Origin: an uncultured Alphaproteobacteria bacterium
Lineage (GTDB): Bacteria > Pseudomonadota > Alphaproteobacteria > Bin95
Length of the DNA stretch: 64,000 nt
Reading direction: 5' to 3'
Assembly (NCBI GenBank): GCA_963974445.1
Contig: CAXBDI010000001.1
Span: 3,566-67,565 of the forward strand
This document shows positions 55,046 to 63,531 of this stretch, in pieces. Every line of letters begins with the position of its first letter. Position 1 is the stretch's first letter. Below the pieces are notes generated by a model. The model saw nothing but the letters and a program-made list of their open reading frames with translations. It searched no databases and was not told the origin of the DNA. Position numbers and translations under genes: made by a program.

Positions 55046-56392
55046 ATGACGCAACCGTCACCGGAAACGACGATCCAGGTTTCGCGCCAGCGCTTCAAGC
55101 TGCGGGTTTGGATCACCAGTCGACTTTGGGCGCAGGTCGTGGCCGGCATGGTGCTGGGCTTCGGCCTCGGCTTGCTGTTGAGCGACAGCACCGGCCTGAT
55201 ATCGCCGAAAATGGCGGAGCTGATCGGCCTCTGGCTGGCCTTGCCCGGCCAGATTTTTCTGGCCCTGATCGCCATGGTGCTGGTGCCGCTGATCTTCTCC
55301 TCGATCATTGGCGGCCTGAACGGCGCCGGCTCCGGCGCCGAATTGCGGGCGGTTGGGCTGCGGCTCGCCGGGTTTATCCTGATGACCACCGGCGCCGCTG
55401 CAGCCTCTGGCGTTGTCCTGGCGAAGTGGTTACAGCCGGGCGCGGCCTTGCGCACCTTCGCCAGCACCACGGTCACGCCGCCCGCCAATGGCGTCGCCGA
55501 GGGTCCGCCGGTCGAGGAGACGGTGCGTACTCTGCCAGACCTGATCGCCAACGTGCTGCCGACCAACCCCACCGCCTCCATCGTCCAAGGCGACATGCTG
55601 GCGGTGGTTGTGTTGGCGCTGTTGGTCGGTGTTTCCATCACGCAAATCGACCGCAGGCGCGCCGAGCCATTTCTGGCGTTGATGGACGCGTTTTTGTCGA
55701 TCTCGATGAATATCGTCAAATGGGCGATGTTCCTGGCGCCGTTCGCGGTCTTCGGCCTGATGGCGCAGTTGGTGATGCGCATCGGCTTCGAGACGCTGAT
55801 CGGCATTTCCGGCTATGTCGGAACCGTATTGCTGGGCCTGGGCCTGCTGTTCGTTCTGTATCTGGCGGTTGTCTGGCTGCTCGCCCGGGTCAGTCCGATG
55901 CAGTTCGCAGACGCGGCGGCCGGCAATCTGTTGCTGGCATTTTCGACCTCCAGTTCGTCCGCGGTGATGCCGGTCACCATCCAGACATCGCGCCGGCTGG
56001 GCGTGCCGGAGAGCATCGCCAACCTGGTCATTCCGCTTGGTGCGACGATGAACATGGCCGGCACCGCGCTCTACCAGGCGGTCGCCATTCTGTTCCTGGC
56101 GCAATTGGCGGGGGTGGAACTGACGACGACGCAAACTCTGGTGGTCACCGGCACACTGGTGGCCTCAAGCATCGGCGCGCCCGGCACGCCCGGCGTCAGC
56201 ATCGCCATCCTGATCAGCGTCGCCACCAGCATGAATATCCCGGTGGAGGGGATGGTCATCATCCTCGGCGTCGACCGGCTGCTGGACATGTGCCGCACCG
56301 TGGTCAACGTCACTGGCGATCTGGTGGCCGCGGTGCTGTTGCGCGATACCGCGGCGGTCGCCGACGATGGTGCGGTATCGACACACCCTTAA
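55046..56392 (+). CDS. Dicarboxylate/amino acid:cation symporter (DAACS family)
   Basis: 448 aa; 8+ TM helices and DAACS signature region (…AFSTSSSSAVMPVT…, …IPLGATMNMAGTALYQAVAILFLAQ…). Confidence 0.85.
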   Translation: MTQPSPETTIQVSRQRFKLRVWITSRLWAQVVAGMVLGFGLGLLLSDSTGLISPKMAELIGLWLALPGQIFLALIAMVLVPLIFSSIIGGLNGAGSGAELRAVGLRLAGFILMTTGAAAASGVVLAKWLQPGAALRTFASTTVTPPANGVAEGPPVEETVRTLPDLIANVLPTNPTASIVQGDMLAVVVLALLVGVSITQIDRRRAEPFLALMDAFLSISMNIVKWAMFLAPFAVFGLMAQLVMRIGFETLIGISGYVGTVLLGLGLLFVLYLAVVWLLARVSPMQFADAAAGNLLLAFSTSSSSAVMPVTIQTSRRLGVPESIANLVIPLGATMNMAGTALYQAVAILFLAQLAGVELTTTQTLVVTGTLVASSIGAPGTPGVSIAILISVATSMNIPVEGMVIILGVDRLLDMCRTVVNVTGDLVAAVLLRDTAAVADDGAVSTHP

Positions 56393-56601
56393 TAAGATCA
56401 ACCAGTTACAGATGCGACTGGTTTCTCGATAGTCCGGATGTGCAACAGAAAATATCGCAATCAAGAGGCTGGAGCCCAAAAGCACTCCCATATTGACGCC
56501 TGTCATTATCAGACAGATTGTATGTGTTACAAACTGGCGCGCTGCCAAATGTTCGTCCCAGAGTATCTCTGCCGTATACGGGAATCGAAAGAGTGAGGGA
56601 T

Positions 56602-57366
56602 ATGGTCAATTTCTCCGGTCAATCTGTAACGAACATCATACCAAAAGAAAAGAGTACGGCGTTAGTTCAAAAGTTAGGCGGTCTTGTATCGTTATCGGAG
56701 AAAGAAATCTCGTTTCTGAAGAGCTTGCAGCGCAATACATTCAGTGTAGAAAAAGGCGGTGAGTTCATCCGTGATGGGGAAACATGGGATAAAACTTTCA
56801 TCCTTCAGAAGGGTTGGGCGATCCGATACGTCATTCTCAGTTCGGGTCGGCGGCAAATTTTGGGATTTGTACTGCCCGGCGATATTCTGGGCCTCCACAT
56901 CAATTTTTGCAGGACAGCATCGTATTCTGCCTCAGCCCTGACGCCCATCCAACTCGCGGTAGTGGACCCGGCCGGGATAATGGAGATTTGCGAGAAATAC
57001 CCGCTCCTCGGCGCCGGCCTCAACTGGTGTACCGCGCGCGAGTTCGCGATTCTGGGCGATCACGCGGTGCGGCTCGGACGCATGTCCGCGCTGGAGCGTC
57101 TGGCGCATCTCTTCTTGGAGCTTTGGTATCGAGCCGATTTGGTCGGGGAGATAAAGGGCGATTGGATGGCGCTACCGATGACTCAGGAAGATCTGGCGGA
57201 TACACTGGGGCTTAGTTTGGTCCATCTGAATCGGACACTCCGCAAAATGCGGCATGAGAATTTGATATCTCTCGTGAAGCATCATGTCAGATTAAATAAC
57301 ATCGAAAAATTAATGTCCATGACTGAATTCAATACGAGCCATTTAGAGGAATTTAGCACATCATAG
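56602..57366 (+). CDS. Crp/Fnr-family transcriptional regulator
   Basis: ORF from 56518; ATG 56602 after GAGGGA; cNMP-binding-like domain then HTH (…QEDLADTLGLSLVHLNRTLRKM…); AT-rich 5' half. Confidence 0.8.
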   Translation: MVNFSGQSVTNIIPKEKSTALVQKLGGLVSLSEKEISFLKSLQRNTFSVEKGGEFIRDGETWDKTFILQKGWAIRYVILSSGRRQILGFVLPGDILGLHINFCRTASYSASALTPIQLAVVDPAGIMEICEKYPLLGAGLNWCTAREFAILGDHAVRLGRMSALERLAHLFLELWYRADLVGEIKGDWMALPMTQEDLADTLGLSLVHLNRTLRKMRHENLISLVKHHVRLNNIEKLMSMTEFNTSHLEEFSTS

Positions 57367-57371
57367 CCAGA

Positions 57372-57620
57372 TCATTTAAGTTTTACAGAATTTCCATTCA
57401 CCATAAGAATTTTTAATTTTTCGGCAACCCTCTTGTTTATTATGTCGCCGTAATCGCAGTAGGCGGTTTGGTGGGCGTCGATGGCGGCATAAAAAGCTTC
57501 ATCGACCTCATCGCCGGACAAAACGCCTTTTTCCATGAGTTGCAGCAGCAGCGCTTCGACCAAACTGAGCGCACTGATTCCAGCGACCGCTGCATCCGCG
57601 CCGGTATCCGACTTGATCAT
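57372..57620 (-). CDS. Small hypothetical protein (82 aa), convergent with the Crp/Fnr gene
   Basis: ORF to 57671; ATG 57620 with GGAGG at -6 (MIKSDTGADAAVAGISALSLVEALLLQLMEKGVL…); acidic, helical; no recognised domain; low GC. Confidence 0.4.
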   Translation of the reverse strand: MIKSDTGADAAVAGISALSLVEALLLQLMEKGVLSGDEVDEAFYAAIDAHQTAYCDYGDIINKRVAEKLKILMVNGNSVKLK

Positions 57621-58075
57621 TCCTAACCTCCAATAAGGCCTGCGACCGCCCACCAACTTAACGGTCAACACGCGTGATGATAATTGGTTCCATCGGTCGT
57701 GAAAAGTACCTTCAATTAATCAAAAGAACTCATAACAGTTTACGGTGACACTCCATTCAGCGCCCGGGCGTTGATGATAATCATTCTAAGAACGCAAGGT
57801 GCCGGTATGGCGCGTGGTTTGGCCGGTTCGTTCGAAGCATTTGCTTTTGCCGCCGCATGGCCACAGTGATGGCGACCGTAACGTGTCCTCGCCGCAAACT
57901 CTGGGCCTCGTGTGCCTTGAAAAGCCAACTTGGGGAGGTGTGGGCCATTTTGCACCTTGGCTTTTCGGGCGCAAATGAGGGCGCGCCCGCAGCTTCGCTG
58001 TTGCAATACGCCCTCATTGACTCGCCGAACGGGGTTGATGTTGTCCAACGCCGGCCGTGCAGGAACAGGCAGCGC

Positions 58076-58941: not shown

Positions 58942-60288
58942 TTATGCCCGCTCGACGCTGCGCAGCAACCTGGGCCAGAACAGCCAGAGCGTGACGCCTC
59001 GCAATGAAAAGAAGAACAGCAGGCAGAGCCAAAGCCCGTCATTGCCGCCGCCCCAACGCTCGACAAGCCAGAGCGACAGGAGGTAGGCCGCAAAGCTCAT
59101 CAGCATCGCGTGCCGCATCAGCCGGTTTTGGGTTGCGCCCAGAAAGACGCCATCCATGACGAACGCGACGAAGGACACCAGCGGGAACGCGACTGCATAG
59201 GGCAGGTACTCCAGGGCCAGCGCCTGCACCTCCGGGATGCCGGTCAGCAGTTGAATGCCCAGCCAGCCGAGCCCGCCCCAGGCCACTGCCAGCACCAGCG
59301 CGATACCCAGCGACCAGCGGAGCGCGGCGAAGGTAGCGGCTCTGACCCTATCGCGATTGCGCTCGCCATAGGCCGTACCGACTAGCGCCTCCGCCGCGTG
59401 GGCGAAGCCGTCCATGGCGTAGGTGCCGATCATCACCATCTGGTAGAGCACCTGGTTCGCCGCCAGCGCCACATCGCCCTGCATGGCGCTCTTGTTGATG
59501 AAGATCGCCAGGCCGGTGATCAGGACCAGGGTGCGGATGAAGATATCGCGGTTGACCGCCATCATCCGCTTGATGCGCGTCCAGTCGAGCACACGGGTGC
59601 GGCCGTGGCCGGAAGGCATCTGCGCCAACCTTCGGCGCACATAGTAGAACGCCACGGCGATGGCGGCGTATTCGGCGATGACGGTGGCGGCGGCGACCCC
59701 CTCCACACCCCAGCCGAAGCCGAGGACGAACACCAGGTCGAGCGTGATGTTCAGGCCGTTCGAGAACAGTTGCAGATAGAGCGGGATCCGCCCGTCCTCC
59801 AGCCCATAGAACCAGCCGATGGCGACGAACATGGCCAGCGCCGCCGGCGCGCTCCACAGCCGGATCGCCAGATAGGCGGCGGTCTGCGTCTCCACCGCCT
59901 CGCTGCCGCCCAGCGCCCAAAGGCCGGTGCTGACGATCGGACCCTGCAAGACGACGATCGCCAGGCCCAGCACTCCGGCGAGCAGCAGGGCGCGCGCCAG
60001 GATGTTGCGCACCTCGCCCCAACCGGGCCCCTCGGCCAGGCCGCGGCCCACCCCAACCGCCTGCGCCGTCGGCCCGGTGGTGCCCATGCGCAGGAAGTTC
60101 AGGCTGGCGTGCACATAGGTGTAGATGACGGTGCCCAGTGCTACGCCGCCCAGAAACGCTGGGTCCGGCAGGTGCCCGACCACGGCAGTATCCACCGCCC
60201 CCAGCAGCGGCACGGTGGCGTTGGAGACAATGATCGGCAGCGCCATCCGCCTGAGACGGCGGTCGGTGGAGGCTTCGGCAAGGCTCAT
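58942..60288 (-). CDS. MATE-family efflux transporter
   Basis: 448 aa, 12 predicted TM helices, MatE repeats (…LPIIVSNATVPLLGAVDTAVVGHL…). Confidence 0.8.
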   Translation of the reverse strand: MSLAEASTDRRLRRMALPIIVSNATVPLLGAVDTAVVGHLPDPAFLGGVALGTVIYTYVHASLNFLRMGTTGPTAQAVGVGRGLAEGPGWGEVRNILARALLLAGVLGLAIVVLQGPIVSTGLWALGGSEAVETQTAAYLAIRLWSAPAALAMFVAIGWFYGLEDGRIPLYLQLFSNGLNITLDLVFVLGFGWGVEGVAAATVIAEYAAIAVAFYYVRRRLAQMPSGHGRTRVLDWTRIKRMMAVNRDIFIRTLVLITGLAIFINKSAMQGDVALAANQVLYQMVMIGTYAMDGFAHAAEALVGTAYGERNRDRVRAATFAALRWSLGIALVLAVAWGGLGWLGIQLLTGIPEVQALALEYLPYAVAFPLVSFVAFVMDGVFLGATQNRLMRHAMLMSFAAYLLSLWLVERWGGGNDGLWLCLLFFFSLRGVTLWLFWPRLLRSVERA

Positions 60289-60573
60289 CGGCGGACGGCT
60301 ACCCGGATGCGGTTCACATCCACCACCAAACTCCGCCGGATGCCGGATGACAAGCGCCGATCACCCCCGGCGCGCCATCGCCGCACGCGCCGCGCGGTTG
60401 GCACTTCCCCCACCCCTTGCCTCGGGCTTGGCCCGGGACCCATGGCTGAGTCTAGACCGCAGAGCCCGGCGAGGGAGGGGCTGGATTATGGCTTGCCCAT
60501 CGCCGCCAGCACGATCTCCAGGTTCCGCCGCACATTCTCCGTGCGCGGATGCCCCGCCGGCAGCGTCGCCTCT

Positions 60574-61372
60574 CAGAGCCTGATTCGAAACTAACCAAAC
60601 GTTTTCAACTTCTTGAGAGATGGCGGGTGACGCGTCGGATGTGGGCGATGAGCATCCAGGCTTGGGCACTCGCGATGGATTGTTCCCAATCCTTTGACAG
60701 GCGGCGACAGCTTCCAGCACATCCGGCGCGCCGTCACGATCCTGAATACCGGCGCTGTGGACCTCGAGGCCGACGAGCAATCCGATCGTGTCGGTCACGA
60801 TATGGCGCTTGCGCTCCTTGATCCTCTTGCCCCGTTGCCCGACAAGCGAATGGAACATTCGCTGAGAGGGGCGTCATACCCCCTAACTCCCCCACTTTCC
60901 GTGGTTTTGACGCTCTGGCTGTCGATGATACCCGCCGTCGGCTGAGCTTTGCGCCCGGCGGCCAGACGCGCCGCCTCGACAAGCTTGCGGTTCATCTCAT
61001 CGAGCAGGCCGTCATTGCGCCAAGCGCAAAAATAGCCCCGGACCGTGGAGACCGGCGGGAAGTCGTTGGGCAACATGCGCCATTGGCAACCGGTTGTCGC
61101 GATGTAGAGAACCGCGTCCAACACGTCACGCAAACGCGTCGTGCACGGCCTACCGGTTGTCTTGCGCAGGGGCATCGGGCATCAAGGGTTCAATCAGCGC
61201 CCATTCCTCATCGGTCAAATCACTTGCGTATTTGTCGTCTACTCGGTCCTGTTGGCGGCGGGTGAGTTCAGTCCAGGCCGTGGGGATCTCCGTTCAGCTT
61301 TACAACCAAACTGAATCACAACCTGCTGAACTCACTCAAATAGTTTTAAATCAGGCTCTAAGAGAGCCGCTA
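60574..61372 (-). mobile_element. IS5-family (IS427/IS1031-like) insertion sequence remnant, ~0.8 kb, transposase disrupted
   Basis: Imperfect terminal IRs AGAGCCTGATTCGAAACTA (left) and TAGTTTTAAATCAGGCTCT (right, reverse complement). Transposase fragments in three frames: …(T)AWTELTRRQQDRVDDKYASDLTDEEWALIEPLMP (ACG where ATG is expected), then MPLRKTTGRPCTTRLRDVLDAVLYIATTGCQWRMLPNDFPP…IIDSQSVKT…, then …[35 protein letters not shown]…, and a C-terminal …[33 protein letters not shown] joined out of frame. Confidence 0.6.
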
Positions 61373-61603
61373 TCGCTCAAATCTCTGTCTCACAAAACTG
61401 TACACCGGGGGAGTGTGAGAGACACCGATGATGGTCTCGAAAAGCTAGCTCAGGTGACCGAATGGCGGGATAGCAGCGTCTTCTCCCCTGCTGAGCATGT
61501 GGCGCTCGAACTGGCAGCCGCGGTTGCATTCGAGAACTTTCGCAGCAAGTTCAATCCCGTATTCGGGATCGAATCACAAGGGATGTGCCTTTTGCCGGAC
61601 TGA
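61373..61603 (+). pseudogene. C-terminal fragment of a carboxymuconolactone decarboxylase (AhpD/CMD)-family gene abutting the IS
   Basis: …GLEKLAQVTEWRDSSVFSPAEHVALELAAAVAF… matches the CMD-family mid/C-terminal helix pattern (GE..RL..L..WRE…FS..E.AAL.LAEAVT); N-terminal catalytic CxxCxxxH part missing; begins at the IS right IR. Confidence 0.35.
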
Positions 61604-61807
61604 CGTTCAACGGCTGCATCCGGATAGCGCAGACGCTTGTCGTCCACCTTTTGTAGAAGCCATCGTTGCAGATCAGCCCACGTTACGCTCGAACGTGTCG
61701 TCATGGATGGAAGCGCATCGTTAGCGCATGAATCGGGTGGCCAGCCTGACCGCCAAACCGCTCCAATGGCAGCCGGCTTTTCATTGCCCGCAAGATTTGG
61801 AAGCAAC

Positions 61808-62292
61808 ATGACGATGCACCCTAACCCCGGCAAGACTTTCGGGACCGTCAGCCCGGAAAGGCGGCGAGGCATGACCGGTCTGGAATTTGTTCAAGGGCTT
61901 GCCGACGGGACCTTGCCTCTCAATACCATCGCTGAAACACTCTGCTACGACATCGTCGAGGCGACGGAAGGGCGCGTCGTCATCACGGCGCTTCCCAACG
62001 GCGCCCATCTCAACCCAGCCGGCACTGTACATGGCGGCCTGGCGGCGACACTGCTGGACAGCGCCATGGGCCTTGCCATCCAAACCCTTTTGGACGCAGG
62101 CGTCGGTTCGACGACCGTCGAATTCAAGATGTCCTTCATCCGGCCGATCTTGCCGGAACGGGCCTAATCAAAGCGGTAGGCGTCGTCTTGAATTGCGGGC
62201 GCCGGGTCGGGACGGCGGACGGACGCATCACCGACGCCGAAGGGCGGCTGCTCGTTCACGGCACAACGACCTGCCTGATCATGGGCAGATAG
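61808..62292 (+). pseudogene. PaaI-family (hot-dog) thioesterase, interrupted by a frameshift near 62150
   Basis: ATG 61808 (MTMHPNPGKTFGTVSPERRRGMTGLEFVQGLADGTLPL…NPAGTVHGGLAATLLDSAMGLAIQT…) stops at 62167 (…FIRPILPERA*). Another frame continues …LAGTGLIKAVGVVLNCGRRVGTADGRITDAEGRLLVHGTTTCLIMGR*, the conserved thioesterase C-terminus. Confidence 0.5.
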
Positions 62293-62298
62293 GCGGAA

Positions 62299-63531
62299 AT
62301 GAAAACTTTGCACCGTCGGCCGGTGCTTATCATCACGGTGCTATCGCTTGGCTTATTTCTGAGCCAGGTCGCCATTATGGCCGTGCCTGCGGTAATCGTT
62401 GAATTGGCCAGCCAATGGTCGCTCAATGCCGCACAGATCGGATGGTTAGGAGGCATCTATTTCGCTGGGTACGCAACCGGACTGCCGTTTGTTTCCGGCG
62501 CTGCAAATCGGGTCGACGGTCGGGCGGTCTATGCGGTTTCGGCGGTGATTGCGGCATTGGCATCCTTTGCCTTCGCTGTCATCGCAACTGAATTTTGGTC
62601 GGCCGTTGTCTTGCGGTTCATTGCTGGTATCGGTTTTTCCGGCATTCACGTCCTTGGCATGAAGCTTATGGTTGACCGACTGGAAGGTTCCACCAAGGCT
62701 CGGGCCGCCGGGCTCTATAGCGCGGCCTATGCAACCGGGACGGCCGGGTCATACCTGATCGCCGGGATGCTCAGCGGCGCGTATCGGTGGCAAGCTGCTT
62801 TTGTGGCGGCTGGAGCCGGGGCGATACTGTCACTACCTCTTCTGATGTTGATCGGTGCCCCGCTCGAAGGGAACGAGATACGATCGAGCCGCTGGTTCCC
62901 TGATTTTCGGGCGGCAATGAAGAACCCGGAAGTCGTCCGCTATGTTATTGCTTATGCGGGCAACACCTGGGAAGTTTTTGCGATCCGGGTGTGGTTCATC
63001 CCTTTTCTTGCATTCAGCGCTGGGTTGCACGGTGACACGGCATCAAGTTTAGAACCAACTGTCCTGGCTGGTATTTCAGTATTAATCTCTGTTCCCGTCA
63101 ATATTTTCTTTTCCGAATTGGCTCTTCGCTTCGGGTCCGAGAAAATTGTGCGCCTTGTTTCGCTTTCATCAGTCTGCGTTGGCTTAATATTGGGATGGCT
63201 TGCAGCAGGCCCATACGCTCTCGTTCTCATCCTGCTCTTGATCCACGGCGCAACCAGCTTTGGCGATGCAGGAACGATCAATGGCGGCGTGGTCGCAGCA
63301 TCGACGCCGGACAATCGCGCCGCGGTGCTGGCCCTGTTTAACCTGTTCGGTTTCGTCAGCGGGTTTCTCGGACCGTTTGCCGTAGGGCTGGCCTTGCGCA
63401 GCGCAGGTGGCCAGACAGATGCATCGGCGTGGTTTTGGGCCTTCGCGGTGATGGCCGCGGGTTCGGTGGTTTCGGCAGCCGCCATGAGAAAACGAAGGCG
63501 AACTCTGCCTACGCGACGAGGGTCTGTATGA
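62299..63531 (+). CDS. MFS transporter
   Basis: 410 aa, 12 predicted TM helices, MFS-like motifs; follows thioesterase remnant. Confidence 0.8.
   Translation: MKTLHRRPVLIITVLSLGLFLSQVAIMAVPAVIVELASQWSLNAAQIGWLGGIYFAGYATGLPFVSGAANRVDGRAVYAVSAVIAALASFAFAVIATEFWSAVVLRFIAGIGFSGIHVLGMKLMVDRLEGSTKARAAGLYSAAYATGTAGSYLIAGMLSGAYRWQAAFVAAGAGAILSLPLLMLIGAPLEGNEIRSSRWFPDFRAAMKNPEVVRYVIAYAGNTWEVFAIRVWFIPFLAFSAGLHGDTASSLEPTVLAGISVLISVPVNIFFSELALRFGSEKIVRLVSLSSVCVGLILGWLAAGPYALVLILLLIHGATSFGDAGTINGGVVAASTPDNRAAVLALFNLFGFVSGFLGPFAVGLALRSAGGQTDASAWFWAFAVMAAGSVVSAAAMRKRRRTLPTRRGSV

Follow-up and report, generated by a model that had tools for sequence, protein, structure and literature searches.

An IS5-family insertion sequence remnant with preserved ends and a disrupted transposase gene at a synteny break in an uncultured marine alphaproteobacterium

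Within the IS5 family of insertion sequences (ISs), the IS1031 group has a single open reading frame (ORF) and a 3-nt insertion site, and an ORFA/ORFB-type frameshift is mentioned for IS1237 (PMC2516522). We describe here a related IS in a 64-kb stretch of DNA from an uncultured Alphaproteobacteria bacterium (contig CAXBDI010000001.1; this whole stretch is called the window). The IS lies on the minus strand at 60576-61358, and we are highly confident that it is a dead IS5-family remnant, with intact ends and a broken transposase gene. Relatives were collected in a distant blastn search of a plasmid collection (332 records found) and by querying 5.8 billion proteins with the frame-corrected transposase translation, which gave thousands of relatives. 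The best plasmid records are annotated 'IS5 family transposase' elements of Octadecabacter arcticus and Paracoccus saliphilus. The element of O. arcticus 238 pOA238_118 (WP_015495875.1) shows 77 to 81% nucleotide identity to the remnant and agrees with it in gene order and transposase sequence. The P. saliphilus element on p242883 is among the closest annotated records (~77% identity). The nearest named element among the plasmid matches is ISRm4-1 of Sinorhizobium, with 66 to 68% nucleotide identity.

Intact elements of this type are 931 bp long, start with GA(A/G) and finish with CTC. The copy in the window measures 783 bp, its inverted repeats (IRs) included. The IR at the end downstream of the transposase gene (60576-60593, plus strand) reads GAGCCTGATTCGAAACTA, and the IR at the upstream end (61341-61358) reads GAGCCTGATTTAAAACTA on the minus strand. 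Both align with the ends of intact relatives, and 16 of the 18 bases agree between them. When three mismatches were allowed, the terminal repeat had two matches only in the 64-kb window, against a chance expectation of 0.01. Transposase coding sequence is spread over three minus-strand frames: one piece runs from TAWTELTRRQ to LIEPLMP, a second from MPLRKTTGRP to DVLE, and a third encodes a C-terminal part. The longest piece matches Pfam DUF4096 (2.1e-19), and the DDE domain is only partly present. After frame correction the translation reaches 90 to 91% aa identity to intact 274-aa IS5 transposases. The triplet directly left of the IS is TCA (60573-60575) and the one directly right is TAA (61359-61361), both read on the plus strand; both are of the TNA type, and they are unlike each other. 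The preliminary description, made from the sequence alone, had called the element a decayed IS5-family IS of about 0.8 kb with intact IRs and a multiply broken transposase gene. The repeats, the transposase pieces, the alignment to intact relatives and the measured length bear this out.

Lesions of the transposase gene were mapped by alignment to four intact 931-bp relatives, with the same outcome for each. The start codon is lost: ACG is found at 61281-61279 (minus strand) where relatives carry ATG. A 7-bp tandem duplication (GATGCCC/GATGCCC, minus strand, ~61170-61183) shifts the frame just after LIEPLMP. A 38-bp insertion (minus strand, ~60833-60870) shifts the frame again; it is present in no relative, occurs once in the window, and contains a perfect hairpin with a 7-bp stem (GCGAATG-TTC-CATTCGC). 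The insertion ends in GGGCAACG, a partial repeat of the adjoining GGGCAAGA. The last lesion is a frame-shifting 193-bp deletion with its junction at 60709-60712 (minus strand), by which ~64 codons are gone from RYP.LRH.FADGGYAG to AWL.R. It takes out the region of the second catalytic Asp, including the conserved FADGGYAG segment. The four lesions account for the length of the copy (931 + 7 + 38 - 193 = 783). We looked for an intact frame, a start codon and a complete catalytic core, as expected of an autonomous IS, and this copy has none of them. The ACG start, the two frame-shifting insertions and the catalytic-core deletion together mean that the copy is unable to make transposase. The lost start codon and the frame change after LIEPLMP had already been noticed in the preliminary description, and the latter is now explained by the tandem duplication. 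It had also listed an internal deletion and a second frame change; both are present, but they are one 193-bp event and not two. Its count of four disruptions holds, although the 38-bp insertion had been overlooked. The surviving codons are near the family consensus. Of the 111 positions that at least 97% of relatives conserve, four are changed in this copy (R to C, Y to C, G to E and A to S), and intact family members carry a mean of 1.1 changes at the same positions. With so few changes at conserved positions, it was concluded that indels and loss of the start codon killed the copy and that no long substitutional drift was involved.

The intact family was characterized from the protein search. 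We aligned 119 close relatives taken from the best 120 protein matches; all are single ORFs of 270 to 280 aa, nearly all of 274 aa. One of them, P0005, is found as an identical protein on at least 24 contigs, and its eight displayed contexts all differ. An identical protein in differing surroundings indicates that the P0005-type element is active elsewhere. P0005-type proteins score 259.6 bits on the NCBIfam model NF033580 'IS5 family transposase' (cut-off 110) and match Pfam DDE_Tnp_1 (1.2e-37) as well as DUF4096. The remnant shows ~86% nucleotide identity to the multi-copy P0005-type IS in loci L020, L021 and L027. In relatives whose two flanks form a matching pair, TNA duplications are identical on both sides (TCA/TCA in L020 and L021, TAA/TAA in L027 and L001), whereas the window has TCA on one side and TAA on the other. 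With one 274-aa DDE ORF and a 3-bp TNA duplication, the intact family appears IS1031-like; this subgroup placement is one of resemblance.

Other arrangements were seen among the relatives. Intact P0005-type copies in L022, L025 and L026 often adjoin another copy or a solo terminal repeat (GACTC-TNA-GAAGCTGATTT). This arrangement suggests that the element's own end together with TNA recreates a preferred target. Alternatively, the copies may have been joined chimerically in metagenome assemblies. Plasmid pOA307_63 of Octadecabacter antarcticus 307 (L003, 2038-3120) carries a 620-bp related IS remnant with 72% identity. It adjoins the 3' end of a PaaI thioesterase gene, with genes for a CoA-transferase and an enoyl-CoA hydratase lying upstream. 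Genes of these families also neighbor the IS in the window, and the likeness of the two gene neighborhoods is probably a coincidence.

The IS separates two flanks that were not originally adjacent. Three observations carry this conclusion: the flanking triplets are unequal, synteny with relatives stops at the start of the MATE gene on the left, and codon composition changes across the IS. Nor are the flanks the two halves of one interrupted target: the triplets differ, and a gene tail of host type on the left faces DNA of low GC at third codon positions on the right. Nine loci from metagenome-assembled genomes (MAGs) of related uncultured Alphaproteobacteria encode MATE proteins 76 to 84% identical to the one in the window. 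The alignment covers the MATE gene in all nine, extends to the enoyl-CoA hydratase gene in most, and takes in further genes leftward in L012, L016 and L018. Synteny ends at 60219-60292 in all nine and at 60261-60292 in seven of them, which is at the MATE start codon or slightly inside it. The region upstream of MATE in these relatives holds a pyruvate kinase gene (five loci) or a 2-oxoacid oxidoreductase gene (two loci). In L006 (TARA_SAMEA4397363) the 60 bp at 60419-60478, upstream of the MATE gene, are missing. An indel that is polymorphic in the population, located between the dead IS and MATE, may account for this absence. Two contigs of MAG CBDBCB01 (L017 and L018) carry the locus of MATE and enoyl-CoA hydratase genes twice, and both MATE matches are broken into different frames. 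These copies may be duplicated pseudogenes or long-read assembly errors.

Directly left of the IS is the tail of a minus-strand gene (60486-60572), with 28 codons at 60489-60572 and a stop codon at 60486-60488. Its frame runs unbroken to the IS junction and is cut there. GC content at codon positions 1/2/3 is 0.75/0.50/0.93 in this fragment and 0.67/0.47/0.88 in the MATE gene, and the intergenic profile is flat. A difference between GC at the third position (GC3) and GC at the second as high as that of the fragment is reached by 18% of in-frame 28-codon windows of genes in the window and by 0.85% of off-frame ones. Because its codon composition is host-like, the fragment is probably a real gene tail of host type. 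No homologue of the 28 aa was found with an X-padded query of the protein database, and tblastn against plasmids and the fetched loci gave chance-level matches only. The preliminary description had seen the last ~28 codons of a minus-strand gene here; the tail is present with host-like composition, and a homologue to support it was not detected. An assignment as a pyruvate kinase tail was tried and rejected, since 23 of 500 shuffles scored at least as high in local alignment as the fragment did (28); the window has no pyruvate kinase gene.

On the right, a spacer of 51 nt (61362-61412) is followed by the 3' remnant of a CMD/AhpD (YciW-related) gene on the plus strand (61413-61603), recognized by its homology to L028 and to protein homologues. 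The spacer does not align with L028, and its sole other metagenome match is the same locus. The remnant starts 51 nt past the TAA triplet and 53 nt past the last base of the IS. The last 62 codons survive; about 88 codons of the 5' part, with the CxxU site among them, are missing. A 93-nt in-frame deletion (31 codons) lies at 61510/61511 between short CTGGC repeats; apart from it, the remnant is 92% identical to the C-terminal part of its orthologue. L028, a JGI contig with the intact locus, shows 93 to 95% DNA identity to 61413-62742. In the large protein search, homologues of the frame ending at 61603 were named alkylhydroperoxidase or carboxymuconolactone decarboxylase family. The fragment by itself had no family match in Pfam, in a PDB sequence search or in plasmid tblastn. 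The preliminary description had placed the C-terminal half of a CMD/AhpD-family gene here. Family and strand are confirmed by homology, but the remnant begins 51 nt away from the triplet and has a deletion of its own.

The gene from which this remnant derives is probably a selenoprotein gene of known kind, as judged from its intact orthologues. These are single frames of 181 to 189 codons in L028 (40-585), L029 (1400-1969), L030 (896-1465) and L031 (195-764). Each contains one in-frame TGA in the context G-C-P-F-TGA, at the position of the second Cys of CxxC, and an invariant hairpin UCUCUC-CGUGU-GAGAGA 12 nt downstream of the TGA. The breakpoint in the window falls within this hairpin. Read through the TGA, the L028 protein matches Pfam CMD (PF02627) with 39.7 bits (cut-off 23), and the match spans C-P-F-[TGA]. 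An intact orthologue also aligns over its full length with NCBIfam NF053654 'YciW-related (seleno)protein', but its 121 bits fall far below the equivalog cut-off of 310, so the orthologues form a related subfamily. Gene callers split the intact orthologue at the TGA into pieces of 80 aa and 93 to 101 aa. Many database entries of ~100 to 107 aa named 'alkylhydroperoxidase family' may therefore be C-terminal halves of selenoproteins.

Further right, a PaaI/4HBT thioesterase pseudogene (plus strand, 61766-62292) was identified by comparison with the intact 175-aa gene in L028 and by Pfam 4HBT. A 1-nt deletion in an AAA run at ~62157 (GGAAAC to GGAAC) leads to a premature stop at 62165-62167. The deletion is found in all Tara assemblies that cover the site. 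As an indel in an AAA run it could be doubted as a sequencing error, and it is not part of the IS. Two MFS transporter genes are also found on this side. GC3 is 0.85 to 0.88 left of the IS, 0.75 in the thioesterase gene on the right, 0.60 and 0.70 in the two MFS genes, and 0.82 to 0.85 beyond. A second IS end bounding the block of low GC3 was not found in L008. Comparison of the right-hand region with relatives by tblastx gave compositional noise only.

These features suggest the following history. A 931-bp IS5-family element was formerly active in this marine alphaproteobacterial lineage and then died in place. It would have sat at a rearrangement junction or created it. Two candidate routes are adjacent deletion mediated by the IS (intramolecular transposition into a new TNA site) and recombination between two copies. 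Either route would keep TNA at both ends while leaving the middle base free to differ, and either would cut the left ORF exactly at the junction. After loss of the active copy or of selection, indels of slippage or repair type would have built up in the IS and in its unselected neighbors. Possible examples are the 7 bp duplicated in the IS, the 93 nt deleted between CTGGC repeats and the single nucleotide lost from the AAA run. We give even weight to the IS itself having made the junction. The preliminary description had ascribed the loss of at least two genes to insertion plus adjacent deletions, which is plausible and fits the unequal triplets and the synteny break.

Several points weigh against this history. 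The left fragment is read as a gene tail from codon-position composition alone and has no detectable homologue. The unequal triplets could be the product of a single point mutation in an old duplication, and the relative in L002 also has TCA on one side and TAA on the other. The AhpD-like remnant lies 51 nt from the triplet, so at least one further event was not centered on an IS end. No empty site or IS-free version of the locus was found, and a metagenome scan with the 51-nt spacer as an exact pattern returned the same locus only. Judged from the few substitutions at conserved codons, the death of the IS does not appear to be ancient, and the term decay rests chiefly on the indels.

Some of these points also fit a simple insertion. 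The IS would have inserted into a single gene and one triplet would have mutated later; the truncations and the synteny break would then come from unrelated deletions or horizontal acquisition, with the IS as a bystander or co-arrival. We consider this account rather unlikely. The 51-nt distance of the AhpD-like remnant from the triplet speaks for it, and so do the foreign-looking GC3 of the right-hand genes (0.60 to 0.75) and their 93% nucleotide identity to L028, which is a contig of another metagenome. Two more points in its favor are that, among plasmids, Rhodobacterales carry the closest relatives of the IS and that the context upstream of the MATE gene is already variable among relatives. 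It does not explain why the left ORF stays in frame up to the IS while the DNA past the other end neither continues this ORF nor shares its composition. The flanks are thus not parts of a single disrupted gene, so that a breakpoint coincides exactly with one end of the IS. A TNA triplet is also kept on both flanks, as expected for adjacent deletion or recombination involving the IS.

It is highly unlikely that the dead IS has been kept for host use, either as a source of an outward promoter or of regulatory sequence for the MATE efflux gene or as a non-autonomous element mobilized in trans. IS5-type elements are activators of neighboring genes in E. coli. The transposase gene in the window points toward the MATE gene, which is 286 bp downstream on the same strand, and the native upstream region of MATE relatives has been replaced here. 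The IRs are intact. However, promoter, terminator and Rfam scans of 60000-62000 gave nothing relevant: no sigma-70-like promoter was detected anywhere in 60200-61900, and there was no Rfam match. The population variant without 60 bp between the IS and the MATE gene suggests weak constraint. The preliminary description had proposed a look for intact copies that could mobilize the remnant in trans; neither a second copy of the IS nor an intact transposase gene was found in the window or in 5.5 kb beyond it. A single copy in the window and its flank is unlike a mobilized family. We see little chance for a combined scenario in which an IS-linked rearrangement destroyed a selenocysteine-containing AhpD-like peroxidase gene and the dead IS was kept because its outward end helps to drive MATE expression. 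If true, the locus would record both the loss of selenoprotein use and the exaptation of an IS.

It is extremely improbable that the real element is intact and that errors in sequencing or assembling a metagenomic contig produced the lesions. The window does derive from metagenome assemblies, and two scaffolds have N-gaps inside the IS (60702-60729 in L005, over the deletion junction, and 60949-61004 in L006). The deletion junction, however, is read without a gap in the window, in L004/L008 and in L006. The 38-bp insertion is read through in L004, L005, L008 and L032, and the 7-bp duplication in those four and in L006. At the lesions the assemblies match the window except for one substitution (61161) in L006. 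A degenerate single-copy element is not a repeat prone to assembly collapse, and homopolymer error accounts for none of the four lesions. Several Tara Oceans scaffolds, which come from different samples, encode identical MATE and MFS proteins next to the IS. L004-L009 and L032 have the same DNA as the window through the IS, barring the N-gaps and a few substitutions. Since this sequence recurs in several independent Tara assemblies, the lesions did not arise as artefacts of assembly. There is practically no case for an IS that is full-length and functional and relies on programmed frameshifting (IS427 or IS3 types) for its transposase, with the lesions as normal features: some IS5-family subgroups use an ORFA/ORFB frameshift and the gene here is split over three frames, but all 119 aligned close relatives are single ORFs that need no frameshift, the reading frame changes where this copy has indels found in none of them (the 7-bp duplication, the 38-bp insertion and the 193-bp deletion), the deletion removes conserved catalytic-core residues, and the start codon is ACG. 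Sequencing artefact and programmed frameshift had both been raised in the preliminary description as ways in which its reading could fail. Neither holds, given the agreement among assemblies, the single-ORF relatives and indels private to this copy.

The remnant now has no function of its own, and the locus is a case of ordinary insertion-sequence decay. For annotation, 60576-61358 should be recorded as a transposase pseudogene or IS remnant, and 61413-61603 and 61766-62292 as pseudogenes. The spot marks a place where both synteny and composition break in this uncultured marine alphaproteobacterium, and it has little import beyond annotation. At ~56300-57800, a patch of low GC (0.44 to 0.50, GC3 0.55 to 0.59) lies amid DNA of ~65% GC. 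It holds a gene for a Crp/cNMP-binding regulator and an 82-aa ORF, and it is compositionally foreign to its surroundings.

Compared with described systems, the element shares with IS1031-like IS5 elements the terminal repeats starting with GAG and a TNA triplet at both ends. It differs from them in being 148 bp shorter, in having no start codon and in lacking part of the catalytic core; it also has two frame-shifting insertions and unequal flanking triplets. The gene remnant on its right differs from YciW-related/AhpD-like selenoproteins in having no redox motif. The junction resembles those left by IS-associated adjacent deletions or by IS-IS recombination, where an IS end likewise abuts DNA that does not continue the gene at the other end. 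As at such junctions, triplets of the target type have differing middle bases and the element sits at a break in synteny and composition. Unlike typical junctions of this kind, it has an extra 51 nt between the flank of the IS and the next recognizable remnant.

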